Assembly: GCA_032718475.1 (NCBI GenBank)
Contig: JAUCBJ010003414.1
Span: 1 to 64,000, forward strand
Length of the DNA stretch: 64,000 bases
Direction of reading: 5' to 3'
Source of the DNA: Nemertoderma westbladi
Lineage: Eukaryota > Animalia > Xenacoelomorpha
The position numbers and the translations under genes were made by a program. This document shows positions 5,139 to 36,775 of this stretch, piece after piece. Below the pieces are notes generated by a model. It did not search any database and was not told the DNA's origin. It saw nothing but the letters and a program-made list of their open reading frames with translations. Numbering within the stretch: the first letter of the stretch is position 1; the number at the start of each line of letters is the position of its first letter.

Positions 5139-5199
5139 AGAAAGTTTTTACGTTAAACTACAAATGCTATCTAATAGTGAAATAATCCATCACCGCTCC
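5139..5199 (-). repeat. A1 3' LTR remnant (5139-5192) plus polypurine tract GGAGCGG (5193-5199)
   Basis: Matches the LTR start TGATGGATTATTTCAC seen at 16310, 25595 and 45353. Confidence 0.88.
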
Positions 5200-5831
5200 A
5201 TGAAAACAGTAAGTAAGACTGTTTTCACCAATCGAAATATAAACTATTTACAAAATACTTCTAAATCTACTGGTGGGGCCTAAAATATAAAATAATCACT
5301 ACCTAATTATTGCATACTTAATATTGCAGGTACAGCGTAAATACAATCTATCATACATACAAAATACAAATTTACCAATTAACTTTAGTGCATAAAATAC
5401 AAAAAAAGCTTTCGGTTAACAAGATAAGCAAATTAAACAAATCAGAACAAATCAAACAAATAATTTCAAGTTTTCAATAATCTTTATATATTGCAAATAT
5501 ACATAATAAATTTACCAAATTAAATCAGTCTTATAGAATAAACATAATACGCTAATATCTTTCAAATAAGTCTTAAAGTGTCCTCCTGACGAGCTAAAGT
5601 TCGTCCTGCTGGTCTGGATATCTTCTCCTGAGCACTAATTGCTAACGGTAGGCTCTCAAGCCTTCCTTCTCCATCTCACTCCTCCAAAACCAACGTTCAA
5701 TATAAATACCCAAATATAATATCCAAATATAAATATCCAATATAAATATCCAATATCAACATCCAAATAAAATATCCGAATATAATATCCAATTGGTAGG
5801 CTCGCAAGCCTTCCTTCTCTATCTCGCTCTC

Positions 5832-8495
5832 CTATTCCTTGGCCGAATGGGCTCGTACACGCCCTCTATTACGATTGGGTGGTGGTCGGGATCGAACTGG
5901 ACTCGGACTTCGGTGTCGAGCTGTCGGTGGTTCCAAAACGCTAGGAAAGGGGACGACGGGAGTTTTGCACATCCATCGTGCGCTCAGTCCTCTAAATCCT
6001 CGTCCGATTCCAATTGTTGGCTTAACATCGGATCGAGTCTCCACAACGCTGGGAGGAAGTCGAAAGGGTGGGACTGTTCCGTCCGCTGACACCTCGCTCT
6101 CTGATGTCGTCTGAATTCTAATGGGTTCCGGCAAAGCGTATCCTGTCCCTCAGCATTGTTCTCTAGCGAGGGAAACCGTGCCCCGAGTCATCCAGAGTTG
6201 CGACTTCGATGTTGTCCTCTCGGCGATATTTACTACCTTCTTTATCCCTTGTCCGGCCTTCTGGGCTCTAAGTATACGAAGTTGCGGATCATCCTGTGGG
6301 TGACGCGTCTTTTCGGCTAATGGCGTGGCCTTGAAGCCAGTCTCACGCAAAACGTCCGTCTCGTCTAAAATACACGAGGTTACGCGTTTGTGATAAAATG
6401 CGCTCCTGTATGCCCAAGCTATCGAATGCCAGGCTCCTCGATTCCGCTGTTCGACTCGCAATTTGTCGAATTCCCTGGCGGTAATCTTGTTCACCACAGT
6501 TTGTAAGTTCCAAGTGTTCTTGTTGTCGCGGTGTACCTGTAGAAAGTAGTCCCGCACAACCTTAAATCCGCTATACAATGGCAATATATCCAGCACCTCC
6601 AAGAGTTCATCATATTGAGGCATAGCTGACACGTATCCTTCCTTCGACATTGTGAGAGGGTTTACGGCCCAAAATCCCAAGTGTGCTCTCATAGGGAAAC
6701 GGCGTCGCTGTGTCGATACATGCTCATCTGCTAGATTCTCCCAATGGTCGAATAGCTGTCGAATGATTTTAACTGACATGTGCTCATAGGGGATGTCCCT
6801 AAGTTGACATTCGGATGCCCTATGACCTTTAATATTACAATATGTGCACTGCGCCACGAAATGCCAGCAAGTGTAGAAAATGTGCGAACGATGATCCCCG
6901 CACCAGTTACATACTAAGTCCGGTAGATATATGTGTTTCGCTCCGCATTTCTTTGTGTGGTGGCCAGTTGCCCCGCATCTGCCACAAATAGTGTTGGCAG
7001 GGTACCAAACTCGCTCATACTCAGTTCGCGTCTTCCTCGGAAGGTTCTCTATCTCTATGAGTTGCCGCAACGGTTCATCTATTATCGCAAACTCGGTTGG
7101 ATCCACATCGTCGTGATGGGGGGTAGGCTCGCGAGCCTTCCAGGATCCTTCTGGGCCTTTGAATTCTGCGTGGCGTTCCCCGTCGTAGGGTACTAACGTT
7201 AACATCGATGGTCTGTCGACTAGGGTTCCCGCGTGAGTGAGATAGATGTCCCTGAAAACGCTAAGTCCCGCTCGCGTGAAAACTTTGCAGTGCACATCGG
7301 TGTTGTAAAAGGGTTGGAGAAATGGGCGGAATACATCAGTATGCGTCCTTCCTCCGTCGTAAAAGGTATGTCCTTCACCGAGACATAACGGATGTCGCTT
7401 TAGAGTCCTAGACACTACATCGGCGATGAAACAAACATTTACCGAAGATTCTATCGCCAAATAGTATTGCAAGATTATTCGTGGAGGTGAAGTAATCGCC
7501 CAGTACACGCAACCTCGCCACTTTAGCTGTGACTCGAACTCGTTTACGCCGGGGGTATCTCCCTCTCCGTATATGTCCGTGTATTTGCTCCTCTTACTCT
7601 CCTTATAATCCCAACTAAACATTAGGTATGAGATATAACCCGTTCCATTTTTAGCGTGTTATACTCCCTAAAATATCCTCGCTCAATAGCCCAAAGCAAC
7701 AATGGTCTAGTATCCACGTATGGCATAGGCAATCGATCCTCTTCCGTGGGCATTCCTGCGAAATCGCTAATAAGGTCATCCCGTACACTGGATCCGATCT
7801 TGACGATGCTCTTATCAAGCACAAACGTCTCGTACGGCCTTTGGCAACATTCTAGCTTCTATGCTACAAGCCAGGTCCATGGATTTAACTATCCGTTTTA
7901 TCATCGCGTGTCTTTGCGTCGTTCCTTCCGGCATAGGCATCTTTCTGTCGCTCCTCTGTCGGCTGAAGACATGTAACACGCCATCTGGTGCTCGAATCTG
8001 TATGGTCTTCGAAGTGAGGCTTTGCTGATGGCTTCCTCCTTCATTATTGTAAAACATAAAACCATTCTCCTTCAGATATTGGCTAGTCGCGTCCCAATCG
8101 TCGAGTAAATCGTCGGTAGGGTTCCAAATTCTCCCTATTGACTTTTCATCATCGAAACTAATAGGTTTACCAGTCCAATTGGTCGCAATATCGGTGTCGG
8201 TCTCAAACGTTCCGACTCCAATCCATAATCGAATCATTTTCGTTAGATATCCTCGCAAGATACAAGGTGCGATATCCGTCCCCGCGCGATCCACTTCCTT
8301 AAAGTCCGTAATATGTGGAGGCACATTGCGTACGATTTTCTGAACTATCGTTCTATGCAACTCGGCTGACTCTAACACATTACCAAAGGTAACCGATGGG
8401 GGGAAATCCAGGTTCGAAATGATCTCCGGGTGTTCAACTGTAGGAATCTCATAAGTTGTCTCCTCTCGGGTCGGTATACTAATAGAGCTCGGGTG
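5832..8495 (-). pseudogene. Accessory ORF of family A: putative DEDDy 3'-5' exonuclease, three Cys/His knuckles and Arg/Ser/Pro-rich tail (two frameshifts, one stop)
   Basis: ORFs 7815-8378, 7622-7822, 6150-7622 and 5832-6134 join up; motifs ISFDDE, TIQIR...VF, LPKAVRDV/LDKSIVKIGSSVRDD, YVDT, W...LQYYLAIE; CGRCGATGHHTKKC, CNWCGDHRSHIFYTC, CTYCNIKGHRASEC; the stop at 6150 is a Gly codon in copy A2. Confidence 0.6.
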
Positions 8496-8503
8496 TCATC
8501 TCC

Positions 8504-9319
8504 TTAGGTTCGGTTTGATCTTGGGATATCCAGTAAAATGGTAGGCTCGCGAGCCTTCCGCTGAACTCCTCGATCTCGCCTTTCTCGTACGCCTTTTACG
8601 CCCTGTAGGCTCAAAGCTTCCCGTTTCTCTTGCGTCGACTTATTAGACTCGTCCACTACCATATTGTAGACGTCTGGTTCGACTAATTTAGGTTCGTAAA
8701 TAATGATCTCACCCGCGTTCGGTCCACTCATCTTGAACGAATGGTACGGATTCGTCAAAGGGTATCCGCCTTCTTGGTAATGCAGACTTTGGTGGTATGA
8801 GCATCGCGCTAATATCGGCTCGGGGTTTTCCGAGTTCAATCGCATAGGAATCGCGTTGTCTTGCTCGCGCATACATGCTCCACATTTGTAAAACAGTTTG
8901 TATATGGAGAACGCGTCCTTTGTCTCTGGATCCGCTCCTCGAGCGTGTCTATAAAGATGCATTCCATCGAATTCGTCCCTAGCTGCAGGCAAGGGTTCGT
9001 TCACCGTCAAATATTGCAGTGTATGATATAATCGGCGTATCTCCGTGTCTGGATCCTCGCAAATGTCACTGGCATCGCATAACGCATACAACGCATTGAA
9101 CTCCGCGCGTAATTCCTCCACTCTTTTGTTATAAGCGTCCAATCGCTGTTTTGTAACATTCGGGTCCGCCTTGGATTTAGCGAGCTTGGCTGTACTCCTA
9201 GCCATACTCTCCACTCCAAACATGCTAAAGTTTTTAGCTCCATAACGATTAAACGGCGCCTGGTGCTCCTGTTCCTGCGTAAATCCCTGACGTAACTCCT
9301 TATAAATCTTCTCCGCCAT
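8504..9319 (-). CDS. First accessory ORF of family A, unknown 271-aa protein with CxxC...CxxH
   Basis: ATG in good context (ACAATGG), open 271 codons, same strand as gag/pol, no signal peptide or TM segment visible; possibly the N-terminus of the downstream accessory frame. Confidence 0.6.
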   Translation of the reverse strand: MAEKIYKELRQGFTQEQEHQAPFNRYGAKNFSMFGVESMARSTAKLAKSKADPNVTKQRLDAYNKRVEELRAEFNALYALCDASDICEDPDTEIRRLYHTLQYLTVNEPLPAARDEFDGMHLYRHARGADPETKDAFSIYKLFYKCGACMREQDNAIPMRLNSENPEPILARCSYHQSLHYQEGGYPLTNPYHSFKMSGPNAGEIIIYEPKLVEPDVYNMVVDESNKSTQEKREALSLQGVKGVRERRDRGVQRKAREPTILLDIPRSNRT

Positions 9320-10054
9320 TGTATACGCGTATATATGGTTACATATCGTTACGTTTCTACTAGATGAAGCGCAAAATAGAGGTTAGATGTGAGGTGACTT
9401 AGAGTTTGTCGGCTTTTGGCTCAACTTTGCTCTAAAACCCCAACCCATTTGCCTAATGACTTCGGGTTCGCGTGATTTCGCACTGGCTCCTAATCCAACA
9501 AATTGTGCCGATAAAAAACGAATTCTGGGTAAACTAGCCGCGAGTCTAAAATACTCACCTTTTAATTTCCCAAACTACATTCCCAAATAAATAATGCAGT
9601 CGAGAATTAATTCAGTCTAAATAATAGTAGACACGACTACATAGAACAAGGCCGGTTTTCTTTTCCAAAAAAATTTGTCGGTAGGCTCGCAAGCCTTCCA
9701 TCCGCTCTTGTCCTCCCCAATTTTAATTTTTATCTAGCTGTATTCTAGAATTCGCATTCACTGGAGAATCATTTTTCTTAAATTTAAATCCAACTGAATG
9801 GATTTGTCTAATAATTTTGAAAATTGTCTCACTTGTGGGTTCCAAGTGGAATTCCATTCCTACTGTACACACAATCCCGCTCCTATGTGATACATAAGGG
9901 TACTACCCTCCATGTTCACATATAAAGACAATGGAATTCCACCGCTGTCTCTATCTACAGTGAAGAGGATTACAAATGCACATACAGTAATACAAAATAC
10001 TAAATTACTAAAATACGGTAAGGCTATGTGGCAGCCATCAAGGGTCCCACATCT

Positions 10055-10972
10055 CTATTTACTAATGTTGGGTGGAGATTTGTAGTCTCCTGTCTCGTTT
10101 CTAGTCTCCTCAAGGAGTACGAGACGTTGTACAGGCCTATCTACAGTATGTCCGTCGATAGTCCTTACAGTAACTGTCCTTACTACACCAGATGTAGGGT
10201 GCGTGGTCAAAATGACTCCAGTCAGCCAAAACCGTCGTTTCAGATTGGCTTCAGCCAATAAAACAAAGTCACCGCGTCTTAGACATCGGGTATTAAGATA
10301 CCAAGAGGTTCTGGTTGAAATAGAGGGCAAATAATACTTCTGCCATATTTCCCAGAATTTGTTTGCAAGTAGCTGAGTGATTTTCCAAGCCTTGTTGCCG
10401 TATCCGTCGCTATTAATGGGTACCGAAGTGGGCAACAATGTCATCGGCGCCTGCATAAGCAGGTGCGCTGGTGTCAAAGCAAACTGTGCGTCGTTATTGT
10501 CTGGGATCAAAGCGATCGGCGTGTGTTCAAAATCGCTTCGAATTCTATTAACAACGTCGTCAGTTGGTCGTCTGTCAAAATGTGTTGCGTCGGTATTACT
10601 TTAGCCATAGCTGTTTTGATTGAGCCAATCAGCCTTTCCCAAACGCCGCCTCTCCACGGACTGTCTGGAGTGTTGAAGTTCCAAACAATACGGTAAGGAC
10701 ATAGTTCCTCGGAAATCTGGTCTTGGTCCAACTTTCTTAAAGCTCTGGTTATCTCATTCCATGCACCCACAAAGTTTGTCCCTTGGTCACAATAAATGGA
10801 TTTGACCAATCCACGTCTAGCGATAAATCGCCGTAAGGCTAGGATAAAGGCATTGGTGGTCAAGTCTGTCACACGCTTTATATGGACAGCTCTGCTGGCC
10901 ATGCAAGTGAAGATTAATCCCCAACGTTTTACCTGTCCTGTACCCTTCCGCGTTTCGCGATAATGAGTCCAA
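10055..10972 (-). pseudogene. BEL/Pao integrase core and C-terminus (frameshifted)
   Basis: IYCDQGTNF, PWRGGVWERLI, EAILNTR, LTPAHLL, FWEIWQKYYL, W..GVI, VVRTVTV, RPVQRLVLLE. Confidence 0.92.
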
Positions 10973-13146
10973 ATCCGTCATCTCGGTGAACTGTTTGGCG
11001 CTGATCGTTTCTGCTGGTTGCAACGTGGGTTTCCGAAAGGGTGTTTCTCGTGGAGGATTGTCAATGTATTGGTTCGTCGATCTTTCCTCCCGTTTGTAAT
11101 CAGCTGCTGCTGTCGCTCCAGTACGGAATATTTCCCTTTCCGTCGAGTCCGAGTTGCTAGATGAGCTATTTAGCTATGGTTGGCGGGTTCACGTCCGGCG
11201 TATTACCTTTTGTTGGGCTCGTTGTGGTCTGGAATCTACGGTTCTCCGTCGTTCGGTAGGCTCGCAAGCCTTCCACGAAGTCGTAGGTCTCATTAAACAT
11301 TGTTCGATCCTGTGGGTACTACCTACATCCGTCCTCCTCCGTTGTTCGGTAGGCTCGCAAGCCTTCCACGAAGTCGTAGGTCACGTCGAACATTGTGTCA
11401 AAGGTCTAATAAAGCAGTCGGGTTTCGTAGTCGGTCTATAAATAACTGGGTTCGTACAGCACGTCACAGGTTTAACTGCTAACGGCTTACTTAACTGTTT
11501 AATTGTCATAAACGCAGGTTCCTCTCTTCCTACAAGTAGACTACGACTTACTGTAGGTGGACTAGTTACATTACCTGCCAAAATTGGCGATGAAGTTGCC
11601 CTAGGTTGCGGTATTTCCATCACAACAAACCTGTTACCTTGAGTCGAGCGCACAGGTGTTATTTCCTTAGGTTTCGTAACAAAGACCAGGTTTATCAGAG
11701 TCGTGGGTTTGAGCATAGGAATCCCTTGTAGAAAACGTTTGCAGTAATCCTCGATGAACTCCTCTCCTCGATCTATCGCTCCCACACTTCCTTCCTCAAT
11801 TCGCTTCTGTATCCCGCGATATCGAGCTTCCAAGCGATCCAGGGCAGACAAGTTGTGTCCAGCTCACGATCTTATAGATCTATCTCTCGCGTCGAGTTCG
11901 AGGTCCGCTTGCGCGTTCGCTGCCTCGCGTGATCTACGATTTAGTTCGAACTGTAGTTGCATCTCCTTTTCGTGTCGATCTGCTACTTGTTGTTGTGCCG
12001 CTAACTCCGCTTCTTGTATAGCTAGTCGAGCGTTAATTTGTCTCACTTCCAACTTGGCGCGTGCGTCAGATGCCACTTTCTTCCGAGCTAACTCCGCTGC
12101 GTTTACTGTCGCAACTCGTCGGCTGCATGCAGCTTCTTGTGCCAAATCTTCCTACAGTCTTCTTAGTTCCAAGGCTTCGAATTCTGCTTGCGCTTTGAGT
12201 TGCGCAATCCTTGCCTCGTCTTCTCTTTGTTGTTTTTCTCCCTCGATGGCGATCTGTGCCATCTGCCGTTGCGCTTCTCCCTTGATGACTTGTTGTCGGC
12301 GTGCAACTTCCTGTTGTTGTCGAGTAATTACAGACGCTGTTCTACTAACGTCGCCAACGTCGCTCCGCATGCTAACAAATGATCTATCCAGTGGTGGATT
12401 TTGGTAGGCTCGCGAGCCTTCTGTAGCAAGAACTTCCGTCGTCCCTCGTGGTTCGACTTCCGGTTCTTCGATCGGTACGCCGTTTCTATGAAGAAAATTG
12501 GTGAGCGTCTCTAACCTCCCGTCCAGGCAGTATAGTTCTTCTTCCTCTTCGGGTTGTAACAACGCGTCCGAAACTGACTCACCTAGCAGTTGGTCGAACT
12601 CCTCCTGTTGAGCCAATCTTATTACTGACTTAAACTGGATAAGGCTTTCCCTCGCACTTACCAACTTATCTATTATCTTTACCTGAGTAAAGTTGTCGAC
12701 ACGCAACTCTGCAAGTTCGTGTAAACCTTTAAGTTTATCTACGGAGGCATATACCCTACTTTCTATCCTTACCTGTAAGGTGTAGAACTCGTATCTCGAC
12801 ATCAGGGCGGTTAACTCGCGTAAAACGCGAAAACCTTCTCTGAGGTTTAGAGTAATCTGGGCCACGTGTCCTCCTATACTTCAATGACATTTTCTTGGCT
12901 TCCCGCCAAGCTTACCATGTCTGGTTCCCGTGACCTGGTCTGCGGGACTGTAGGGAAATCCTCGATCCTGCCGTCGCCACGCATTGCGGCTTCCGGTATT
13001 TCTCTTCGGGGTACCGGCGACGCACGCGGTGTGACATCGGTGGAATCTCGGGTTCTCCTTCTCGGTTTGTCTACTGTCGATCTGTCCGGTTCGCACGAGT
13101 CATAGTCTGTAGGTGGGTATCGAGTCGAGTATGGTGTGTCACTCAT
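10973..13146 (-). pseudogene. A1 gag N-terminal half (frameshifted, coiled-coil)
   Basis: ORFs 12874-13146, 12152-12865, 11864-12145 and 11381-11851 are homologous to A2 gag 36776-38590; fused directly to integrase by a deletion near 10972. Confidence 0.8.
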
Positions 13147-14130
13147 GTCTTATTATATACGTCAAGTACGGGTAATAAAATATCAAAGTATCGGAATGTC
13201 GAAATGTCAAACTTACCTTGGTATATATATAGCATATATATACCCTAACCGGTACAAATAAATCAACAAAGTCAGAATGTCGAAATGTCAAAATGTCGAA
13301 ATGTCCAAATGTCAAACTTACCTTGATATATATATATATATATCATATATATACCCTAACCGGTACAAATAAAACTAACAAAGTATATAATAAAATATGT
13401 AATAATCTAGCCTACCGGCTAAATTTGTATGAATAAGTGAGATAACGGTATACGTTACCAAAATGTAGATCAACAAGTACAAATAATAGGCAAAACAGCA
13501 ACGTCTAACGGGAAATAAGTACCAACAACACTACTAATTAGACAGTGAAACCCACAAATTTTGAGTACTACTGTGCTTTTAAGTTTGAACGACACGAGTC
13601 GTAAAACTTACGCTCCTTTGATCTTCCAGTCATGCAAATTCCTAAATACAAACCGGACGTGGGTCGTTCCGTTTTTCGGCGTCGCGGACAAATTTTGTGT
13701 CTCCCAAACTTGCGAAAAGCGGTCTAATCCTCGAAGCAGTCCAGAAATGAGTCCTTGAGTCCTGAAAAGTCGAAGGTCAGAGTTTTACTTCTACTCTACG
13801 AAAAATCTTCCTAGGTACCGATACAACTTGGTCTTTAAACCCTATTTACCTTTTTAAGTACTGAAAAGTAACACCGCACACACACGGCGTAAAACAAATT
13901 GCTACTAACTAACTATTAGCTAGTCAAATATTAAATACGAAACTACTAGCTACCCTAAAGCCTACTGAAGCAGGGGACGTTCTACAAATTACTAATTTTA
14001 CTAATTTTAAATTGTAAGTATCTCCTACTTTTATAATAGCTAACAATATATTTATATCTCACTTTAGGTAAGATATATCTACCATTTGCAAATTACAATT
14101 TGCAAATTAAACAATAAATATACCTCACTT

Positions 14131-16310
14131 TGAGATCCTCTACGGTAACGGCTATCCTACGGCCTACATATCTACTAGTACGAAGCTATAGAGTATCTCT
14201 AACCGTAAAGTCCAGTAGTATACCGCTTACCAGATCCTAGTAACGATGTATCTTACCGTAAGATCTAGTAATGAAACGGGCTCGTACAGTATCTGACAAC
14301 AAATCCCAGTCCAGGGTATCTAAACAAACAGATACAATACACAAACGACTACTGGCGAGGAGCAGAGCCTAGTGTCTATTCATGTACGTGAGCGGGTCTA
14401 ATGCCTACAAACTAGACAAAAGGAAACCTGTCCTCTAACCAGTATGGCAGATGTACAGTTACAGTAACAGACCAAACTCACGGGAAAACAATCCCCGCGC
14501 AGCGAATCCTAAGTATCGCTGACAGTCCTAAATACCATAACTTGCCGCGGTGTGATTTATATGGTTTATATACGAGCTAGTGGGTTAACATACCTAGCGT
14601 AACAATACTGATCCCCCTGTACGAAATCAGTCTAAAGAGGGTCGTGCCTAATGTAACAATACCGCTGCTCTGACAAAACAACACTTTAATAACAAAATAA
14701 ATACTCCTTCTTGCCGTAACTAAATATCAGATCCTAAAATTACAAAATACCAACAGTGAGTTATATATATATTCTGCCTAAAGTAACCTAACGTGCGCTA
14801 TGTAGTAGAACTCTAAGGGTAAATATGTTTTAGGGCGTGTGTATGTGGGTGTGTTACAATAAAACAATTTTGGTGTATATCATTTTACTAGGTTTTAGTG
14901 ATTTTCTGACCAAAACAATACCGTGCGCTAGCTACGAAAATAAGCTAGTCGCGTTTTGTAGAACTTTATACTTATAAATGACGTCAAAGCTCTCTCCTTC
15001 CTATCCACAACTCAACCGGGCAATTACGGTGTTAGTAACTACACCCGTGATCGGCACAAATACCAGATTCTGGTTGTAAGATAAGAAATAGGGGTTAATC
15101 GCTACCATATGTTAGCTGATCTGGTATACAAATTTGATTCTAGAACTTTGTTGCCGCAGTGGTTAGCAGCAATACCTATCAGTACGTGGCAAGGTGCGGT
15201 AGGATATTAATAAACCTCCCAAGGCCAAGCGGTGTGCCGGTAGCAGAAATACTCCTTGCCTGATCAAATAACTAAGGTTCAGACAGGGGGGGGGGGGGGG
15301 GGGGGGTACTAATGTATGTTCTACAAAGCGAACCGGTACCAAACGGTCAGTGCTTCGAATCACTAAATTATGGAACATATGCTGTCCTTACTCGCGTACT
15401 GACGAACGGCAATAGCTCACACCTGTGAGGTATACAGGTTAACCCAGGGATTTGTAGTACTGACGGGGGGGGGGGGGTTCTGTCAGAATATAATTATTTG
15501 ATCCTAAATTTTGCGGTGCGCCAGAATGGCGTCACACTTACCCTGATCTATAGGTCTTACGTCGGGCAAGGGCGTCAAACAAAGTCTTACCTTCCTCTGA
15601 AATCGGCGCTGCATGGCAAGGTGGAGTATTTCGAAGGGCGAAGGGGGTGCGCGGTCTAATCCAATGTGGGCGCTAGCGTGTTGTGGACATCTTTCCCTGC
15701 GTTGCTGATGGCCTAACGGTCTAGGCGGCCATCTCCTCAATGCTTGGCTGTCCCAAAGGTGGACGTTCGAAAATATACATGTTCAGAAGTTTACAGTATA
15801 TTTACAGTTTAGCAAATGATTTATCAAACAGATTTATAACAAAACAAATACTAAGTGTCTAAATGAAGTAAGGATTGATATAACAAGAATGGTGATAACC
15901 GAAGGCAAACCAGCCCTTTATATACTAAACTGGGATATAGAATCCGCTAGAACCTTCCAGAGTATTCCATGGCCTCACATTGGAGCAATAAGATGTTCTA
16001 TGCCCTATGATTGGCCCAACTCATCGTTCCATGTGTTGTACGCACCTCATTGGTTTATCAAATTGTACCAAATGAAAATAAATTGCCCCAAAATGCAAAT
16101 TTCCCGACTGGGATTCGAATTCGTAACCTATCTGTAATGCAACCAACGCCTTAACCATCTGACCACTACGCCATGAGATTAACTACGGGTTTTATGTGTA
16201 CCAATATGAATAGGCATATTACATTACTGTAATTTAATCAAAATTCGTCGGATTTTAGAAAGTTTTTACGTTAAACTACAAATGCTATCTTATAGTGAAA
16301 TAATCCATCA
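14131..16310 (-). repeat. A1 5' LTR (2180 bp, most complete LTR copy)
   Basis: TGA...TCA ends; aligns with 25595-27214 and 45353-47303. Confidence 0.88.
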
Positions 16311-17224
16311 GGCATTACTGTGCCTCTACCTGCTGAACGGTAAAACAAGGATAGTGCTGAACTACATGCTGTTTACATTACTGTTACATTACTGGTTGAC
16401 TGGCGACAATGCTTTCTACGTATATTAGACTCGACTCCTTCAAAAAACTTTTCGGCAGCAAATATGTAAAATTTAATGCTGATTATTTTTTCACTGTTTT
16501 TCGAGGGTTTATAGTGTTTTCCCTATGTTTACGGATATTACTTAAGGTGTGCTATGCGAGGAGTACATTTAGGATTACCAATTTAGTATAGTACATGTGT
16601 TCATTTATAATATTTTCCTATAATAAATTAATAATTCAATTAATAATTTCCCGCTTATCAATATTTTCACTATTTTCCGGGTGTATTACAGTGTTTTTCT
16701 TGTTTTTCTGTTTTCTTAGTGTTTTTCTGTTCTACTAGTGTTTTCCTAATTTAGAACTATCTTATTTTGTGTTAGAGAATAAGGATTGTTTTTGAGAATA
16801 AACAAGGATCAAGATTAGGATGGATTGGATGGATTTAAAGAAAATGAATTTGAGTTTTCCTTTTGTGACCCGAGTTTCACTCTTTCTATAACTATTTTAA
16901 ACTGTAGAATTACATATTGCAGTTGAATTTGATTGAATATTGATTCCAAATATTATCATCAGACCACTCTTGAACTGATAAACTACAAATTGAAAGAAAA
17001 CCTAGAAATAGTATTATTCCTAAAAGTTGACATTATTACCGAATTATAGGGAAAGTTCCCAGATAAACGATTGATCTGTATCTCTTCTGTGGGATATAAA
17101 GTGTTGAATAGAAAGACATGTAATTTATGTTATATCAAAATGCTTACTTTTGTCCTTAAAGTCGATGTACCATTACATTATTTATCTATTTATTTAATAT
17201 TTTAATCATTATTGGTTAACTCAC

Positions 17225-17872
17225 TGTTAGGTGGAGTGTAATTTAGGAGCTCATCGTATGCTTCTCCTAATTGTTTCACAGGGAGAGAACAAGGGTAATA
17301 TCGAGCATGGGCAATAAAACCTGGGAAGGCTTGTGCAGCGTTGTAAATACGTTTTCCTAAATACAGATTCACAGTGCTATCCAATGCTGCTCTATGGGTA
17401 TTTGGAGTGTCGAACTCCATTCTTCTGTAATCTGCACTACCAACTCTTCGACTGTAAAGGGATGTTTGTTTATTAGCAGCACTCACACCAACCGCAACGA
17501 AATACCATTCATTGGAGGTGATGGCGTTGGGAAATGCTTGAGTGGCTGACGATATTGGATTATAGTACAATTGACGAGCATCAGGCCAAATCCATAGATG
17601 TGTTCCATAGTTTACAGTGTCGCCAAACTCAAATATTGGGCCACCTCCAGGCGTATTGATAAAGGCCAACATTGTAAGAGATTCTGAGGTTAACTCATTT
17701 GGATCATGTGCGATTGATATGTAGCCGTTAGTGAAATCTATCGCTTGGTTTTCTACACCGCCTGGTCCAAGTCCATATCTTAATGTTCCAACAATGTCTC
17801 CATGGAGATTTGGTAATTTGTTCTGTCCACCGTCAACCAAGTTCAGTGGCCACCATGAATCAAATTGGCAGT
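17225..17872 (-). CDS. Host exon, LamG/concanavalin A-like domain
   Basis: 648-nt exon, tttgcAG acceptor and A|GTGAGT donor, phase 1 at both ends and so compatible with the EGF exons; WWPLN, GPGG..NQAIDF, NEWYFVAV, LYLG, FPGFIAHARYY. Confidence 0.8.
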
Positions 17873-18529
17873 CTGCAAATAATTAAGGAATACACATATG
17901 ATTTTTTTCTGAATGATATATTGATAACATTTACTACAACTACTAGGTCGAGCGAGCTCAGACACTTTCAGTGCTGATAACTTTTACACCAAACTAAGTA
18001 TGTGTTATTTGCATCGATTTTCGTCTGGAGAGGGAGGAATTTAGATGCTTCGAAAGTCCCCCCCCCCCCTCCCCTCCACCTATCTTAGTGAAAAAAAGTG
18101 AACAAAGTTTCCTATTGGATAATTCATCATTAAATTGCTGTTCCGATTGTATTCCAATTGTAGATGTGTGCCGCTCTGTAAATGAAACTGAGTAGAGATC
18201 AATGAAAACTACAATCTGATATAACGTATTGTACTTAAGTCGATAAAAATCGAAAAGTCGAAAAAAATACGACCAACCAGGTTTTTGCTCCATTGACACA
18301 GTGGGTGGTCTGCTAACCAAAATCCGCGAAAATCCGCCAATTGAAACTCTAGTTATTGACCCTTGACTCTTCGACTATAGAGGAATGTGTGCTTTTATTA
18401 GCTACCCCGCGTTAGGCTGTTTTTTTTTATCTATTTCTGCCAGATTATTAATTGGGGGGGGGGGGGGGGGGGGGGGATTATGCCCGGAATTAAGTTCCAT
18501 AGTGTGCATGTTTAAATGACACAAAGAAC

Positions 18530-19292: not shown

Positions 19293-19449
19293 TGCATAAC
19301 CATTAACCATGCAATATTTGAACGCTCATATCCCAGCTATTTTTAAACGAAATTCAAATTGTGTTACATATTTGGAATCCTTGCATATGGTCAGCTTTCC
19401 ATTGGTACCAACAAACAGCTATAAGGTAGAATAATAACTGCGGTGTAAC

Positions 19450-21613
19450 TGTTGTAATATTGCGGTTATATTTAAAAATATCGAGACATGAAAAATATCG
19501 AGAGTAAAAATAACGCGAGTAAAAACATCGAGTGTTGAAAAATAACGATAATCGTTTTCCATTGGTAATCGCTTTCCATTGGTACCAACAAACAGCTATA
19601 AGGTAGAATAATAACTGCGGTGTAACTGTTGTAATATTGCGGTTATATTTAAAAATATCGAGACATGAAAAATATCGAGAGTAAAAATAACGCGAGTAAA
19701 AACATCGAGTGTTGAAAAATAACGATAATATCGAGAGTTCAAAAAATATCGAGAGTAAAAATATCGAGGGTAAAAATATCGAGAGTAAAAATACCGAGTG
19801 TTGAAAAATATCGAGAGTAAAAATATCGAGAGTAAAAATATCGAGTGTTGAAAAATATCGAGAGTAAAAATATCGAGTGTTGAAAAATATCGAGAGTAAA
19901 AATATCGAGTGTTGAAAAATATCGAGAGTAAAAATATCGAGTGTTGAAAAATATTGAGTGTTGAAAAATATCGAGTGTTGAAAAATATCGGTTGTTGAAA
20001 AATATCGAGAGTAAAAATATCGAGTGTTGAAAAATATAGAATGTTGAAAAATATCGAGAGTAAAAATATCGATATTAACAATTTTTTAAATAAGGGTTGT
20101 ATGATATTTTTTTTTTAACTAAAAATGTTCTAGAACAACAATATTTATTAACATTTAGTAGCTTATACAGTACGTGTTCTACTACTACTACTACTACTGG
20201 GATCGGCATGCTGCATTGCAGCTCCATTTTTAAGAATGCTGTGCCGGCTAGTCAACAAAATTGCACCGCCACAACTCCCTATCACCCATGACATTTGCTA
20301 GATCATCCGCATCTTCAAGGCCAGTGTCCTTTAAGATGCGTCTCAAGAAAGTAATGGGCTGTCCACCATGCTTATTCACTCCATGAGGCTGCCAAAGTAC
20401 AAGATTATGCACTGGCTGGTCCTCACGGCGAAAGCAATGTCCTGCAAAGCGGAGGCGATTTTGTTCTAGTGTCAAGCTTGGGGGAACCAATGAGACACCT
20501 CCAATGTTATATAGTGTCTGGTTGGAGATGTGTGCATTGTACTTGACACAATGAACCCGGCGTAGCATTCTTGTGAATGTGCCATCCAGAGATTTGGTGT
20601 CCTCAGCAGTTAGAGCCCAGCATGGACTCCCGTAGAGGAGTACTGGAACTACTGCTGCTCTAAATAATCGGACCTTAAGTTTCCGATTAATTCTCGGTGA
20701 CTTCCAAATCCTTGAAAGCCTATTCAAGGCTGCCCATGCCTTTCCCTTACGTATTCGAAGGTCCTCACCTGACTTCCGGATCCATGATCCCAGGTAACAG
20801 AAGTCGTCCACATGCTCAAGCATACCATCCTTTGAGCTTATGCTCATCCGATCATAGACTTGCTGAGGACTTTCAAAGTACGTGTTCTAATATAATATTT
20901 AACAATATTTATAATATTTATCAAAATTTATAGCTAGCACTTCTTTTATAATATTTATTAAAAAAATAGCAAAAAATAGCTAGTATAATAAATCTGGTAA
21001 ATGGGTACCCAAGGTGTATTACATAATGCCATTCACTTGCACTTGCACTGTTGTAACCCATGCACTGCAATATTGTTCCATAATTCTAAATAAAATGCTC
21101 AAGCAAAATGCAATATTTTTACTCTTGATATTTTTCAACACTCGATATTTTTCAACACTCGATATTTTTAATCTCGATATTTTTCAACACTCGATATTTT
21201 CAACACTCGTTATTTTTACTTTCGAAATTTTTCAACACTCAATATTTTTACTCTCGATATTTTTCAACACTCGATATTTTTACTCTCGATATTTTTCAAC
21301 ACTCGATATTTTTACTCTCGATATTTTTCAACACTCGATATTTTTACTCTCGATATTTTTCAACACTCGATATTTTTGCTCTCGATATTTTTCAACACTC
21401 GATATTGTTACTCTCGATATTTTTCAACACTCGATATTTTTCAACACTGGTTATTTTCGATATTTTTCATCTCGCGTTATTTTTACTCTCGATATTTTTT
21501 TATCACGTTAATTTTCAACACTCGTTATTTTTACTCTCGATATTTTCACTCTCGTTGTTTTTACTCTCGATATTTTTCAAGTCTCGATATTTTTCACCAT
21601 TACCAATATTGCT
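19450..21613. mobile_element. Foldback-type element with long modular inverted repeats
   Basis: Arrays of 15/17-nt units AAAAATATCGAGAGT / AAAAATATCGAGTGTTG at 19475-20075 and their reverse complement at 21115-21600; matching outer ends AATATTG..AAAAATATCGAGAC; left end locally duplicated. Confidence 0.7.
20182..20876 (-). mobile_element. 5'-truncated RTE LINE (young family)
   Basis: FCYLGS, VLLYGS..W, RLRFAGH motifs; (TAG)n tail; TSD AGTACGTGTTCTA at 20169-20181 and 20877-20889. Confidence 0.92.
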
Positions 21614-25009: not shown

Positions 25010-25594
25010 TTTTATTTTATTCTTTATTGCAGGCATCGCCCATAGTAAATTGCTAAATAGTATACAGTAAATTGCACAGAAGTATAAATATAGTGATACA
25101 CAGATATACATATATATTTTATACCAGTATTGAATAACTATTTATTTAAGAATAAAATTAATATAGATATGCAATATTATCGAAAGTTTCGCGGATTCTA
25201 GAACAACAGTAGGTGACGTTATAAACTGAATTAACGACAGTGTTTATCGAACAACAAATCCTATTAAAGAGACTATTTGCACTACGAAATCTAATATGAC
25301 GAAACACAGTAAATTGTGTTCTCCAAAAAATTGTGACATGCTGTTAGAGACCTGTGCACTAGAAAGTCGGGGAATCTTAAATAGTATTCGAGCTGCGTTG
25401 TTGTAGGCAACTCTAACGCGGTTATATACAAAAGATGAGTAATTCAGTCTCGCCCACAGAGCTTTGCAATACAGTGGTGTGAAGAACATACGGAATAAAC
25501 AACATTTGACCGATACAGAACAGGCACTAAATTTACGAATTAATAAATTAGCACTTGCATAAATGCTCCTAATAGTTTTCTTTATAACATAATC
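25010..25594 (-). mobile_element. 3' part of the LINE split by A2
   Basis: YVIKKTIRSIYASANLLIRKF..CSVSVKCCLFRMFFTPLYC..LW continues in frame from 60344 onward. Confidence 0.85.
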
Positions 25595-25732
25595 TGATGG
25601 ATTATTTCACTATAAGATAGCATTTGTAGTTTAACGTAAAAACTTTCTAAAATCCGACGCATTTTGATTAAGTTACAGTAATGTAATATGCCTATTCATA
25701 TTAGTACACATAAAACCCGTAGTTAATGTCAT

Positions 25733-25816
25733 GGCGTAGTGGTCAGATGGTTAAGGCGTTGGTTACATTACAGATAGGATACGAGTTCGAATCCCAGTCG
25801 GGAAATTTGCATTTTT
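25733..25816 (+). ncRNA. tRNA-like Pol III cassette inside the family A LTR (also 16090-16172 minus and 45491-45574)
   Basis: A box TGGTCAGATGG, B box GAGTTCGAATCC, T5 run just downstream; cloverleaf pairing is poor, so not a functional tRNA. Confidence 0.5.
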
Positions 25817-25848
25817 GGGCAATTTATTTTCATTTGGTATAATTAGAT

Positions 25849-25990
25849 AAACCAATGAGGTGCGTTCAACACATGGAACGATGAGTTGGGCCAATCATAG
25901 GGCATAGAACATCTTATTGCTCCAATGTGAGGCCATGGAATACTCTGGAAGGTTCTAGCGGATTCTATGTCCCAGATTTAGTATATAAAG
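25849..25990 (+). promoter_or_regulatory. LTR Pol II promoter: three CCAAT boxes and TATATAAA
   Basis: CCAAT at 25851, 25891 and 25922; TATATAAAGGG at 25982; conserved in all three long LTR copies. Confidence 0.6.
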
Positions 25991-27796
25991 GGCTGGTTTG
26001 CCTTCGGTTAACACACATACACTTGTCCTTGACTCTTGATTACTATTTAGTTGCCCCCCCCCCCTGTCTGAACTTAGTTATTTGATCAGGCAAGGAGTAT
26101 TTCTGCTACCGGCACACCGCTTGGCTTAGGGTGGTTTATTAATATCCTACCACGCCTTGCCACGTACTGATAGGTATTGCTGCTAACCACGCAACAAAGT
26201 TCTAGAATAAAATTTGTATACCAGATCAGCTAACGTACGGTAGCGATTAACCCCTATTTCTTATCTTACAACCAGAATCTGGTATTTGTGCCGATCACGG
26301 GTGTAGTTACTAACACCGTGGTTGCCCGGTTGAGTTGTGGATAGGAAGGAGAGAGCTTTGACGTCATTTGTAAGTATAAAGTTCTACAAAATGCGACTAG
26401 CTTATTTTCGTAGCTAGCACACAGTATTGTTTTGGTCAGAAAATCACCAAAACCTAGTAAAATGATATACACCAAAATTGTTTTATTGTAACACACCCAC
26501 ACACACACGCCCTAAAACATATTTACCCTTAGAGTTCTACTAGATAGATAGCACACGTTAGATTACTTAGGCAGAATATATATAACTCATGTTAGTATTT
26601 GTAAATTTAGGATCTGATATTTAGTTACGGCAAGAAGGAGTATTTATTTCGTTATTAAACTGTTGTTTGTCTGAGCAGCGGTATTGTTACATTAGGCACG
26701 ACCCTCTTTAGACTGATTTCGTACAGGGGGATCAGTATTGTTACGCTAGGTCTGTTAACCCACTAGCTCATATAAAACCATATAAATCACACCTCGGCAA
26801 GTTACGGTATTTAGGACTGTCAGCGATAGTTAGGATTCGCTGCGCGGGGATTGTTTTCCCGTGAGTTTGGTCTGTTACTGTAACTGTACATCTGCCATAC
26901 CGGTTAGAGGACAGGTTTCCTTTTGTCTAGTTCGTAGGCATTAGACCCGCACACGTACATAGAATAGACACTAGGCTCTGCTCCTCGCCAGTAGTGGTTT
27001 GTGTATTGTATCTGTTTGTTTAGATACCCTGGACTGGGATTTGTTGTCAGATACTGTACGAGCCCGTTTCATTACTAGATCTTACGGTAAGATACATCTC
27101 GTTACTAGGATCTGGTAAGCGGTATACTACTGGACTTTACGGTTAGAGAAATTCTATAGCTTCGTACCAGTAGATTTGTAGGCCGTAGGATAGCCCTTAC
27201 CGTAGAGGATCTCAAAGTGAGGTATATTTATCTTACGAAAGTGAGAGATATACTTTACAGTGAGGTAACTATATATTGTTAGCTATTGTAAAGGTAGGAG
27301 ATACTTACAATTTAAAATTAGTAAAATTAGAAATTTGTAGAACGTCCCCTGCTTCAGTAGGCTTTTAGGGTAGCTAGTAGTTTCGTACTTAATATTTGAC
27401 TAGCTAATAGTTAGTTTGTAGCAATTTGTTTTACGCCATGTGTGTGTGGTGTTACTTTTCGGTACTTGAAAAGGTACATAGGGTTTAAAGACCAAGTTGT
27501 ATCAGTACCTAGGAAGATTTTTCGTAGAGTAGAAGTAAAACTCTCACCTTCGACTTTTCAGGACTCAAGGACTCATTTCTGGACTGCTTCGAGGATTAGA
27601 CCGCTTTTCGCAAGTTTGGGAGACACAAAATTCGTCCGCGACGCCGAAAAACGGAACGACCCACGTCCGGTTTGTATTTGGGAATTTGCACGACTGGAAG
27701 ATCAAAGGAGCGTAAGTTTTACGACTCGTGTCGTTCAAACTTAAAAGCACAGTAGTACTCAAAATTTGTGGGTTTCACTGTCTAATTAGTAGTGTT

Positions 27797-28475
27797 GTTG
27801 GTACTTATTTCCCGTTAGACGTTGCTGTTTTGCCTATTATTTGTACTTGTTGATCTACATTTTGGTAACGTATACCGTTATCTCACTTATTCGTACAAAT
27901 TTAGCTGGTAGGCTAGATTATTACATATTTTATTATATACTTTGTTAGTTTTATTTGTACCGGTTAGGGTATATATATGATATATATATATATCAAGGTA
28001 AGTTTGACATTTGGACATTTTGACATTTCGACATTCTGACTTTGATGATTTATTTGTACCGGTTAGGGTATATATATGCTATATATATACCAAGGTAAGT
28101 TTGACATTTCGACATTCCGATACTTTGACATTTTATTACCCGTACTTGACATATATAATAAGACATGAGTGACACACCACATTCGACTCGACACCCACCT
28201 ACCGACTATGACTCGTGCGACCCGGACAGATCGACAGTAGACGAACCGAGAAGGAGAACCCGAGATTCCACCGATGTCACACCGCGTGCGTCGCCGGTAC
28301 CCCGAACGGAAATACCGGAAGCCACAATGCGTGGCGACGGCAGGATCGAGGATTTCCTTACAGTCCCACAGACCAGGTCACGGGAACCAGACATGGTAAG
28401 CTTGGCGGGAAGCCAAGAAAATGTCATTAGAAGTATAGGAGGACACATGGCCTAGATTACTCGAAACCTCGGAGA
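27797..28475 (+). repeat. ~680-bp direct repeat (5' UTR plus gag start), second copy at 36398-37086
   Basis: Both copies start GTTGGTACTTATTTCCC and end AAACCTCGGAGA, and they flank the foreign 7.9-kb block. Confidence 0.9.
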
Positions 28476-29889
28476 TACGGAAGCCCATAAGGACCACGTC
28501 AAATTGACAATTTCATTCGTCAAATTCGCAATTTCATCCGTCTACTATTTATGGAATTGCCGGTTTGACGGGTGAAATTGAATGAAATATGGACCACGTT
28601 AATTTGGCAATCTACAATCCTGCATTCATCATTGATTGCGCCCTGTCTGCTGTCTATGGTCTGGCTCTCTGTACTGCCTGTGACTATACCGTTACTTACA
28701 GACTTACCAGTCAGCCAGTACACTGTCTGACAGTAGGCCTACAGCACAAAATACTTTCAGTCTTTGTCACAGATTGTTGATATAGCTGTATGTATAAATG
28801 TATACTACTGTCCTATGGTACCGGCTGCCGGCAGACCGGTACTGCAGTACTGTAGTACAGTTGGCCTATGCATTCAGTAAGAGTTCTGGAGTAGGTAGCT
28901 TATCCCATGCCATATCCCTTTTACCAGTATACTGTTATAGCATATAGGCCTACAGGCATTAGCTCTAGCTGTATGGTGCATTATTGATAAAATTAGGCCT
29001 ACAGGAGGCCTAATCTGATAAATGATAATACTGTAATACCGGTACTGTGTAATATTGTAATAGCCTTTCTCGGTATCGGACCCAGGCTGCCAGGACCGAT
29101 ATGTTTTGTCGCAGGTGTGGAAGGGAGCTTCCCGAGGATTCAAAATTTTGCTCAAATTGCGGCTTGCCTCTTCAGCTACCTATGCCGGTAGGAAGTGCCG
29201 GCGATCAGCCCGTCATTCTGGATACCAGTATTATTACCGGTAGCAGCACATTCACATCACCTAGAAACAGCACCGGTAATTCTGATATCATAAAGTTACG
29301 TGAGTTTGTTGCGAACAAGCGAAGTGGCCATTTTCGCCAACCTGATAGTATAAAGAAATCGAAACATTCTGATTACGATGAGCATGCTCAAAATCCGGAA
29401 GTCACAATTTCAATTGGTTTGATGAAGTTTTATGGGAAACTTGGCAAACTAAAGGCAATGTTTGGAAAGAGAATTCCAATAACCGTTGCACGAAATGCTA
29501 ATTACGACACAATACTACATCTTGGCTTTGGAAAATTCCATTCTTTCTACACCGACGTCATTGGAGAGGCAGCTGTATGTGATGATTTCGTGTTAGCATA
29601 TGAGTCGGGAAGGATTGCCTCGAAAATACCTGGTTCGGAAGAAGAATTCAATCTAAGGGGCTATAGAGATGCACTCGGGCGCGAATATCGCCGTATAACC
29701 TTGTATCTTTGTGATAAGGAAGACATGGAGCAGACTGATTCTTGGAGTGATAATACTCATAGTGGCGGGCTGAGTGGCAGGATCTCGAGTTTTGCAACCC
29801 CAACCTCTGCCTGTACAGACCAAATGATGATAATACAGATCAAATACAGATAATAATAGATAATAATAGAATAATACAGATACTGATCA

Positions 29890-32792
29890 AATAATACAGA
29901 TAACTATATTGAATGCAATACATTTCCGGCTGACTTTTCCGATCACGAATTTATAGTACTGAAATCCAAACTAGTAATTTCACAACCACCACAAAACACG
30001 AAACCAGTATATTCTACAGTTAAATTCCGCGATCTATCACATTTCAATGAATCTGATTTTCTTAATGAAATTAGTAAAATTGACTGGACGAATAATTATT
30101 TTACAAGCAATGTAGATTACGTTTATGACAACTTCGAAAATAAATTAAATGAAATATATGATAAGCATGCACCAATTAAAACTAAATGCATACGATCTAG
30201 CAATAATATCAAAAGCAACTTGCACAACATATCACTATGGTGGAACTCAGAACTATCATCCCTAAATATTGAAAAACAGCAAAAATTAATCAGGTGGAGA
30301 CATTCAAAAAGTGAAAGTGACTTTGCAGACTATAAAACAATTCGAAATAAATTTAACTCACTAAATAAAAACCTAAAGAATAAATATATAAAATCAAAAC
30401 TAAATGATGCAACTGCAATAAAAGACAAATGGGCAATATTAAATAAAATCACTAATAATAATAAAAAAACCGAGCAAACTATATCGTCCTTAATTAATCA
30501 CGCAACAGGCTCTATTATTTATAACATATTACCAATGGCGAACCTACTTAATGACACATATCTAAATCTGGGTAACTTTCAAAGCACTGGCTATATAAAA
30601 AGACATTGTACTGTTCACTCTAGTTTCAGCTTTAAGAACGTAACCGAATTAGAAATATTTGAAATAATATCTAAAATAAACACAAATAAACCAACTGGTC
30701 CGTCAATATTAAGTCCAAAATTAATAAAACTAATTGCACCGTATATTACCATACCACTAACTCACATCACAAACTTATGCCTAACGTCAAGCACTTTTCC
30801 TTCTCGGCTAAAATCAACCTTTATTACTCCTGTATTCAAAAAAGGGTCTCGAGATGAACCATCTAATTATAGACCTATTTCTGTCACATCAACATTCGAA
30901 AAAATAATTGAAACAGTCATATATCACCAAATTACAAAATATCTACACAACAATAAAATACTACAAAGTAAGCAATTTGGTTTCAGAAAAGGGTATTCTA
31001 CAGCAGACGCCGTTTTATTTGCAACCGAGTCTTGGAAACGCGAACTTAACGAAAAAAAATATATTGCTATTGGAGTACTAGATCTCTCTAAAGCTTTCAA
31101 CTCCCTCCAGCACGACATTCTCCTAGATAAATTAATAGAAATTGGATTCCAATCGAATGCTGTTGCACTTATTAAAAGTTATCTTCTCGACCGCCCGCAA
31201 GCTGTAAAATTAAGCAAAATGTTCTCAGACTGGAAAATTTGCAATAGGGGTATACCACAGGGCACCAAACTTGGACCATTATTGTTTTTAATATATGTCA
31301 ATGACTTTGCAAATCAAATAAATTTGGAAACAATCCAATATGCCGATGACACTCTTATATATTGCTCGCACCCAAATGCACATACTGCAGTAAAACAACT
31401 AAACAATCAAATCACATATATTAGCCAGCTATTCGCAACACTAGGTATGAAATTAAACTCAAATAAAACAGAACTTCTTGTTATATCCCCATTAAAGAGA
31501 ACAGACGAATTAAATAATCTACATCTTGTGCTTAATAATGACATAATTAAACAATCAACCACAATTAAATATTTAGGCATCATCATAGATAACAGATTAT
31601 CATGGAAGGACCAAATAAAAACTACTACATCTAAAATGGCAGCGGCCACATCCACAATACGCCAAATAAAAGGACAATTGCCAATCTCTACGAAATTAAT
31701 GTTATACAAAGCTCTAGTCATGCCGTACCATAACTACTGTAGTATCTTAACAGCGACATATAATAATACTCACGGATATAAGGAACTACTGTACAAAATG
31801 GATAAGATTCAAAATTACGCACTTAGGCTAATCTATAACAAAAAAATACGAGAAACTTCAGGAACAGAACTAAGACAATTAGCTAGGATCCCGCACCTTA
31901 ACGCACTGAGAGAATACCACGCAATACAATATTTCTATAAATACATGTTCAACATTATCCCAGCATTTAAATCATTAAAACTCCCGTTCATCAATCAAAT
32001 ATCACTATCTAATAGGCAAATAAATCCACGAACTAAAAAAATAAAAGTTCCAAAAACAACAAACAGATTTGGTCACAACTCTTTTATTGTCACATGCATA
32101 AAATCATGGAACAATTTACCTAATAACATTCGTAAATTTGCACTCAATAATAATTTTTTATCACTATTGGAAAATTACTACATAACACAATATGAAAGAA
32201 AAGCAGTAACATAATCACTTAACTATACATTATTATAAAAGTCAGGCTATAAAAGAAGGGAAGGGGGGGGGGTGGGGTGGGGGGGGGGGGGGGGGGGCAA
32301 GTATGTAAGGTGCTTGTAATTTTTCGTGTTATTTTATCTATACTGTGTATTGATATTTAAGTATGGAGTACGTGGATATTGGTTTTATTTATGCATGGTA
32401 TGTGTGGGGTGTGCGGAAGTGCATGTTTATGCATGGGATGGGCTTGATAATACGGGTTGATAATGCGATAGTACGTTAATAGTTTATGTATGGCTGAGCC
32501 TGGCCCATGCACGTAGTTTTATTTAACCATACACCATACAACTTTAGTTAACTAAGTACGGTTGTAATGTGTACAGTAAATATCTTATTCTATTGTTTAG
32601 TGTCGTATTATTTACAAATTATACTGTGTCAACACATACATAGAAGATGGACCAAGTCCATCCAGCCCGCTGACTTTGACCTTTTAAACTATCAGTTTAA
32701 TGTGTAACTTCGGTGCCATTTCACTGCCTTTAGTCCAGCATGCTGGCTAAAGTTTTAAGGTTAATATAATTGAATTGATTGATTGATTGATT
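29890..32792 (+). mobile_element. 5'-truncated CR1/L2-group LINE with an open RT frame (CDS to 32214)
   Basis: APE end FSDH, NYRPIS, QFGFR, DLSKAF, GIPQGTKLGPLLF, YADDT, KYLG; (GATT)n tail at 32775-32792. Confidence 0.9.
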
Positions 32793-32894
32793 GTAATGAC
32801 TTAGCATCAGGATCCTTTCCATCAGAGGCAGAGTCGACTGTTAATCAAACCTTTGACTTAGACTTAGACGCAATACTCTATGATTTCATTGATG

Positions 32895-33080
32895 CTACCA
32901 GTACCAGTACCACTGATGAGACTGGTACCACTGATGAGACTGGTACCACTGATGCTACCAGTGCCGGAACCACTGATGAGACTGGTACCACTGATGCCAC
33001 CAGTGCCGGTACCACTGATGAGACTGGTACCACTGATTCTGCTGGTACCACTGATGCTACCGGTACCACTGATGCTGTCG
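32895..33080 (+). repeat. Coding minisatellite (GGTACCACTGATGAGACT-type 18/24-nt units)
   Basis: Encodes TTDETG/TTDATSAG repeats in the HECT-like gene. Confidence 0.85.
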
Positions 33081-36386: not shown

Positions 36387-36775
36387 TCTATACGCTGGTT
36401 GGTACTTATTTCCCGTTAGACGTTGCTGTTTTGCCTATTATTTGTACTTGTTGATCTACATTTTGGTAACGTATACCGTTATCTCACTTATTCGTACAAA
36501 TTTAGCCGGTAGGCTAGATTATTACATATTTTATTATATACTTTGTTAGTTTTATTTGTACCGGTTAGGGTATATATATGATATATATATATATATCAAG
36601 GTAAGTTTGACATTTGGACATTTCGACATTTTGACATTTCGACATTCTGACTTTGTTGATTTATTTGTACCGGTTAGGGTATATATATGCTATATATATA
36701 CCAAGGTAAGTTTGACATTTCGACATTCCGATACTTTGATATTTTATTACCCGTACTTGACGTATATAATAAGAC

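Follow-up and report, generated by a model that had tools for sequence, protein, structure and literature searches.

We report on a retrotransposon of the BEL/Pao group in Nemertoderma westbladi (Xenacoelomorpha) that carries a coding region which is not an env gene between its integrase and its 3' long terminal repeat (LTR). The element lies in a 64,000-nt stretch of DNA, positions 1 to 64,000 of contig JAUCBJ010003414.1 (assembly GCA_032718475.1), which we call the window. An initial annotation, made from the sequence alone, had proposed that this accessory region encodes a DEDDy exonuclease fused to zinc knuckles. We find that the region is selected, and that its main protein has three knuckles and, likely, a very divergent DEDDy 3'-5' exonuclease domain of the WRN/EXD2/Mut-7 type; taken as a whole, we believe this reading slightly more than we doubt it. 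The middle domain of the protein, judged by its motifs, probably has the DEDDy nuclease fold. That it is an active enzyme we would put a little short of even.

The element that hosts the accessory region (copy 1) lies on the minus strand from 16310 to 5139. Its family is also present in the window as copy 2 (36398-47303, plus strand), which is 94-97% identical to copy 1, and as a fragment at 25594-28475; identity across the family is 90-97%. Copy 1 is without ~4.4 kb of gag-pol (protease, reverse transcriptase (RT) and RNase H) at ~10977, where the alignment with copy 2 jumps from 38585 to 42998. Copy 2 retains gag-pol and has lost most of the accessory region (equivalent to 6940-10392). On the minus strand, copy 1 has a broken gag region (10980-13149) and a frameshifted integrase core with the C-terminal DUF5641 of BEL/Pao (10055-10977), found as profile matches (rve, E 9.7e-5, below the curated cut-off; DUF5641, E 7.5e-20). 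Copy 2 matches RVT_1 (E 0.074, weak), Peptidase_A17 (1.6e-32) and Integrase_H2C2, and a candidate protease was seen by eye only, as a D-S-A motif in 39529-40539. Since copy 1 has rve and DUF5641 and copy 2 has the RT, Peptidase_A17 and integrase zinc domains, the family is, by its domain content, BEL/Pao.

The accessory region fills the space between integrase/DUF5641 and the start of the 3' LTR at 5192, with minus-strand open frames at 8504-9382, 7815-8495, 6150-7658 and 5832-6149. Its longest stop-free run is 502 codons, compared with a maximum of 214 in 300 shuffles, and the coding region is real. It is also non-env by its sequence: we found no transmembrane segment in five pieces (top 19-residue hydropathy 0.46-1.48), and the first open reading frame (ORF) begins without a signal-like stretch. 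With the pol domains, this bears out the proposal of a BEL/Pao element with a non-env coding region after integrase. Every one of the 30 bins of 5150-10600 is covered by contigs from four DNA runs (at most three samples, from three studies), and the accessory region is therefore present in many copies.

The frame in copy 1 is interrupted at three places, and because other copies differ at each of them (indels near 7823 and 7647, a difference at the stop near 6150), the breaks are decay of copy 1. Programmed frameshifting at 7823 and 7647 was rejected, given the indels there in other copies. The initial annotation had joined the frames through two compensating frameshifts. The one near 7823 and the middle frame between them stand: in 7650-7815, all 7 lineage-shared differences are silent in the proposed frame and 0/7 in either other frame. 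The second frameshift moves from 7622 to near 7647, as in 7600-7646 the downstream frame makes 4/4 shared differences silent. The in-frame stop at ~6150 splits off an Arg/Ser/Pro tail and is absent from copy 2 and other copies. The region had also been described as ~3.5 kb of coding sequence, which may be two genes rather than one. Differences in other copies near 8606, and loose contig ends at 8484, would allow a 5' ORF that stops near 8596 and a second gene with its start near 8499. The nuclease-like gene is ~890 codons long with the further ORF upstream.

To look for selection, we classed single-site differences between copy 1 and the other copies as silent or replacement, using depth-weighted contigs, which are not equal to copy counts. 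A first set covered 7440-8170, where 36 of 40 listed differences were used (63 rows in all) and 4 at breaks were dropped. Here 26/36 differences were silent, where neutrality would predict a fraction of 0.21-0.29 (P 2e-7). The silent changes made up 22/23 of the lineage-shared differences and 4/13 of the near-private ones (Fisher P 7e-5), with a shared/private cut that was picked after the data were seen. A second set, outside 7440-8170, had 23 rows from 40 listed of 626; the other 17 were non-coding, at a break, in the gap between the two ORFs or already counted. At a cut of 0.98, silent changes were 8/8 of the shared and 2/15 of the private differences in this set, and with both sets pooled they were 33/35 of the lineage-shared and 3/24 of the private differences. 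By chance, sharing is commoner at silent sites; this inflates the shared/private split and leaves the overall silent excess unaffected. The result is a pattern and not a formal ratio of replacement to silent rates (dN/dS), and with lineage-shared differences almost all silent, it is not the pattern of a dN/dS near 1. Between copy 1 and copy 2 there are 9 silent and 31 replacement changes, a neutral pattern of the kind expected when copies decay after insertion. Among lineages, purifying selection on the accessory region is clear, and this is evidence of its use by the element.

The protein has the parts that had been named for it. Read in minus-strand order, the first nuclease-like piece (7824-8499) has an Exo I-like F-D-D-E at 8156-8145, within the ISFDDE of the initial annotation, and a predicted beta-hairpin at 8006-7962. 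The frameshifted middle piece (7648-7822) has the Exo II-like block (D at 7777-7775) and YVD at 7720-7712, and an Exo III-like W...QYYLAIE follows at 7449-7502, with Glu in place of the family Asp. All of the named motifs are present in the order given for them. Three CCHC-type zinc knuckles (6807-6986; pattern matches at 6986, 6911 and 6848) come next; two are canonical C-x2-C-x4-H-x4-C and one is an x5 variant, and Pfam zf-CCHC matches at E 0.03, under its cut-off. After these come a predicted all-helical region with no family assigned (6150-6800, from a low-confidence model), which ends at the copy-specific stop, and the Arg/Ser/Pro-rich tail with the natural stop (5832-6149), which in copy 2 is in the same frame as the part upstream of it (43953-44687). 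The 5' accessory ORF, possibly a separate gene, occupies 8504-9319 (~240-270 codons), and 4/4 of its lineage-shared differences are silent. It has a predicted coiled-coil stretch and then, at 8780-8890, a C-x2-C ... C-x2-H-x3-H cluster that could bind zinc.

For the DEDDy question, we built local profiles from members of PF01612 and scored the region with X at the breaks. Four profiles were tried. The fourth, of 52 WRN/EXD2-type sequences, grew out of a seed alignment with which WRN, Mut-7 and EXD2 are retrieved from PDB, and it gave 4.3 bits (P 0.0012), a score reached in 1/500 residue shuffles, 0/500 block shuffles and 0/642 window pieces. For the whole gene, 3/2000 residue shuffles reached the profile score. 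The Exo II block (7844-7766) scores 19.6 bits against this profile with the D aligned in register. An independent point is position 7789, where copy 1 has a private change: in the other copies the residue is Gly, which is also the most frequent one in this column of Exo II (22/52). A search for the blocks in order, with positions not given, put four of them, Exo I, the strand after it, Exo II and YVD, at the sites of the initial annotation. Its score was reached by 3/400 shuffles, 13/400 block shuffles, 18/642 window pieces and 5/104 reversed proteins, an empirical P of 0.008-0.05 across the four controls. The Exo I block ranks first at 6.0-6.9 bits, with a second upstream site nearly equal (5.9). 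The four candidate acidic codons (8153, 8147, 7777 and 7451) showed no difference among 40 of the 63 rows, those listed, and the two lineage-shared replacements, at 7588 and 8089, both fall within presumed insertions (weak, n = 2). With hhalign the E-value was 0.0025 at a probability of 12%, and in global mode 0.56.

Several results weigh against an exonuclease, and they leave the proposed DEDDy identity with a weak WRN/EXD2-type signal and no family match. Of the four profiles, three fell short of significance (P 0.17, no hit, P 0.035); among these were the one built on RNase D/NrnC-like/PolA domains and the one built on ten WRN-like bacterial domains. In the whole gene, 107/2000 shuffles of 15-residue blocks reach the profile score, so the signal is a single block, Exo II, and it comes from 27 residues only. 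The ordered-block search did not recover the third strand or Exo III, and the chain score was 4, compared with 36-94 for true family members. Within 7200-7646 the Exo III block is best at the proposed site, at only 0.7 bits, and its Y-L-A-I-E places Glu, or in another register Ile, where Asp is expected. The DEDDy alignment also requires three insertions of ~25-35 residues. Since the family was picked in the initial annotation from the same motifs, the match is partly circular. In addition, contigs of three runs bridge 5962-8766, a 2.8-kb part of the accessory region, which points to amplification of a subfamily that has lost the nuclease-like gene (5963-8765 gone), and copy 2 too is without most of the gene.

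The database searches point the same way. We found no homolog among 2694 candidates (0/2694) or among 1.84 billion representative proteins, so a profile-profile test was impossible. The 5' accessory ORF had 0 homologs in 144 candidates, 0/60 pattern matches in metagenome contigs were confirmed as homologs, and searches of viral contigs with integrase and RT gave no relatives. There was no nuclease match in Pfam, NCBIfam or PDB sequences, and PF01612 matched no piece and no single-frame read-through (the pieces are split and decayed). Glyoxalase-like matches in the Atlas (0.90, low shared-feature counts) were rejected as chance-level, and a second Atlas query gave no usable match. A PHROGs HNH match (E 0.002) was also rejected, as due to the composition of the Cys/His-rich knuckle region. 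Single-sequence folds were uninformative, with a pLDDT (predicted local distance difference test) of 32 for one nuclease-like piece and 44 for the helical region, and a fold search with the pLDDT 44 model found no match.

A selected gene does not have to encode a nuclease. The middle domain may not be DEDDy at all, in which case the product would be an orphan RNA-binding accessory protein, with knuckles and an RS-like (Arg/Ser) tail, that helps export, splicing or packaging, and the motifs would be there by chance. We consider this a real possibility, held with clearly more doubt than belief. It agrees with the missing family and homolog matches, with a weak profile signal confined to a single block, with the large insertions and with an Exo III near noise. 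It has more difficulty with the strength of the Exo II block, with Exo I, strand and YVD blocks that fall in order, and with the Gly of other copies at the second Exo II position. At the other extreme, the region could be a passively carried fragment of a host gene or non-coding filler, and we regard this as very improbable. The neutral-like differences between copies 1 and 2 and the existence of deleted copies would fit it, but the first is also what decay after insertion predicts, and the excess of silent changes among lineage-shared differences (33/35) largely refutes it.

Two further explanations keep the fold and change what the protein does. It could have lost some or all of its catalytic activity, as in EXD1 or Maelstrom, and bind RNA ends or host silencing factors, which we think rather unlikely. 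The Glu or Ile in place of Asp at the last acidic position speaks for this, and inactive DEDD derivatives (EXD1, Maelstrom) act in the biogenesis of PIWI-interacting RNAs (piRNAs) (PMC5408684). However, the D and E of Exo I, the D of Exo II and a Tyr-x3-acidic motif are all present, and the ORF3 proteins of rotifer retroelements that have an altered tetrad (DEED) were judged possibly active (PMC5408684). An active exonuclease could instead work against host silencing, by over-trimming or degrading the piRNAs or small interfering RNAs aimed at the element; this seems to us unlikely as well, if a little less so than a dead enzyme. In favour of such a role are the abundance of the family in all three sequencing studies, the trimming of piRNA 3' ends by Nibbler (PMC11599104) and the presence of Mut-7 and EXD2 in the profile class that comes closest; against it, the rotifer study saw no clear link between ORF3 and copy number (PMC5408684).

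If the knuckle and exonuclease reading is right, we can suggest how the protein might work. At 9359-9387 (minus strand), ~40 nt before the first accessory ATG, there is a splice-acceptor-like site with a branch-point-like CTAAC, a pyrimidine tract and AG, and from it we infer expression of the protein through a spliced subgenomic RNA. By eye, the LTR has several splice-donor-like sites (14135-16310, 45353-47303). By analogy with TbRND, the RNase D of Trypanosoma brucei, the knuckles would hold RNA and pass its 3' end into the nuclease site. The protein would then be an RNA 3'-trimming enzyme, and we think its likeliest substrate would be the element's own RNA in the replication particle.

A repeated 19-nt hairpin could be a docking signal for the protein. 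This near-palindromic motif has 19 matches in the window (both strands) and 0 in 100 shuffles. Eight are in copy 1 on the minus strand (5648-12422; at 5648, 5796, 7123, 8541, 9681, 11256, 11349 and 12404) and seven in copy 2 on the plus strand (37414-44872), for ten distinct sites. One of them, at 8541-8559, falls between the two possible accessory genes. The motif occurs in non-coding DNA and, within coding parts, in each of the three frames, always in the sense of the element, and is absent from the LTR. It folds with a 5-bp stem and a four-base YGCG loop in 8/8, with z from 0 to -1.9, little stabler than shuffles. Scans with the hairpin motif found 2 viral and 10 metagenome loci, with no similarity to the element beyond the motif, and it was absent from 9 supplementary files of PMC3118150, which are possibly incomplete. 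We consider the motif a candidate cis signal, and Gag could equally be its reader. The hairpin and the protein are linked only by their co-occurrence in the element, which counts against joining them. We think it quite improbable that they form one RNA-control module, in which a knuckle-tethered exonuclease would recognise the hairpin, tell its own genome from other RNA, protect or process it, and possibly trim bound host piRNAs.

The 5' LTR of copy 1 (14135-16310, minus strand) starts with TG and matches the 3' LTR of copy 2 (45353-47303, interrupted by another insertion) and the third copy. It is at least 2.2 kb long, about twice the range given by the International Committee on Taxonomy of Viruses (ICTV). 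The LTR start sequence recurs at 16310, at 5192 and in copies 2 and 3, and a purine tract precedes the 3' LTR. In copy 1, this short purine-rich tract and the first 54 bp of the 3' LTR (5139-5201, minus strand) are cut by a fragment of a long interspersed nuclear element (LINE). From the sum of its parts, the complete element would be ~17 kb or more. In Belpaoviridae a tRNA-Arg/Gly primer-binding site is expected after the 5' LTR; a search for primer binding or self-priming found no self-complementary match longer than 11 nt in 13000-16311, with the 3' end of the LTR not located. The 5' leader just upstream of gag has a tandem duplication of ~100 nt with (AT)n hairpins (13174-13384). Host exon-like pieces on the minus strand lie on both sides of copy 1, at 1636-1896 and 17202-17882 (EGF-like by eye; Laminin_G_3, E 2e-5), and the insertion may therefore be intronic.

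The window has other repeats. A second, unrelated BEL/Pao-type element at 50519-59054 has a DUF1759 gag and a 426-codon ORF before gag. Three orphan ORFs in it (57489-59054) have no significant Pfam match, and its post-pol ORFs are not similar to the accessory region of copy 1. Two inverted arrays of a 15/17-nt satellite (19354-20114 and 21068-21609) flank a LINE fragment, and a long 5-nt satellite is at the window end (62800-63700). Among LINE insertions at 29053-36415 there are a zinc-ribbon ORF, a HECT-like fragment (by eye) and an integrase-core ORF (PF24764), which are possibly one interrupted DNA element.

DEDDy cargo is a known kind of retroelement accessory, and its BEL/Pao setting is, provisionally, apparently new. 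We found no report of a BEL/Pao exonuclease in the literature, a provisional result as Repbase entries and subscription papers were outside the search; the available part of a BEL/Pao survey has no mention of an exonuclease (PMC3118150), and that of PMC8220671 adds nothing. The ICTV profile of Belpaoviridae gives LTRs of 0.2-1.2 kb, genomes of 4.2-10 kb and only env-like third genes (PMC8742986). Our element is like these in its pol order (PR-RT-RH-IN), its Peptidase_A17 and DUF5641 and its third gene slot before the 3' LTR, and unlike them in the length of its LTR and genome and in a third gene that is not env. Even if the fold is wrong, there remains a selected orphan accessory gene, in a BEL/Pao element that is unusually large and has a cis hairpin at repeated sites.

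The closest precedents are in bdelloid rotifers, where DEDDy ORF3s occur in the Juno and Vesta LTR elements and in Athena, and where 3'-end processing has been proposed and activity not demonstrated (Rodriguez et al., PMC5408684); a review of Terminons gives the same account (PMC6431247). The initial annotation had named such ORFs in both rotifers and nematodes. The rotifer part is correct, and the nematode part is unconfirmed, as the word is absent from the available text of PMC5408684. Like rotifer ORF3, ours would be a non-env, enzyme-like gene downstream of pol, with no transmembrane segment and an altered acidic tetrad. The rotifer proteins are in Gypsy-type or Penelope-like elements and have strong HHpred homology, whereas here the element is BEL/Pao and the domain is far more divergent. 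Compared by description only, ours also differs in having three knuckles, a helical region and an RS-like tail attached. Variation of the rotifer ORF3s within a genome is mostly neutral (PMC5408684), unlike the purifying selection among lineages here.

Among cellular enzymes, our protein resembles the WRN exonuclease, EXD2 and Mut-7/Nibbler (PF01612) in its Exo II block pattern, beta-hairpin spacing and motif order, and departs from them in that it has three long insertions, its Exo III is non-standard and its score is far under the family cut-off. In layout it is most like TbRND (PDB 7C42), where a DEDD domain is followed by four CCHC fingers, the first two of which grip RNA upstream of the active site (PMC7797062). 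Both would have a DEDD-type exonuclease and then several CCHC fingers, a likeness of architecture only, with no direct similarity detected. TbRND is a cellular mitochondrial enzyme with four fingers after a linker of ~30 residues, while here three knuckles come ~150 residues after Exo III. With the fold as proposed, BEL/Pao would be one more major retroelement lineage to have adopted DEDDy cargo, in a knuckle-fused layout as in the trypanosome RNase D. This would suggest that retrotransposons repeatedly need RNA 3'-end trimming in their life cycles.

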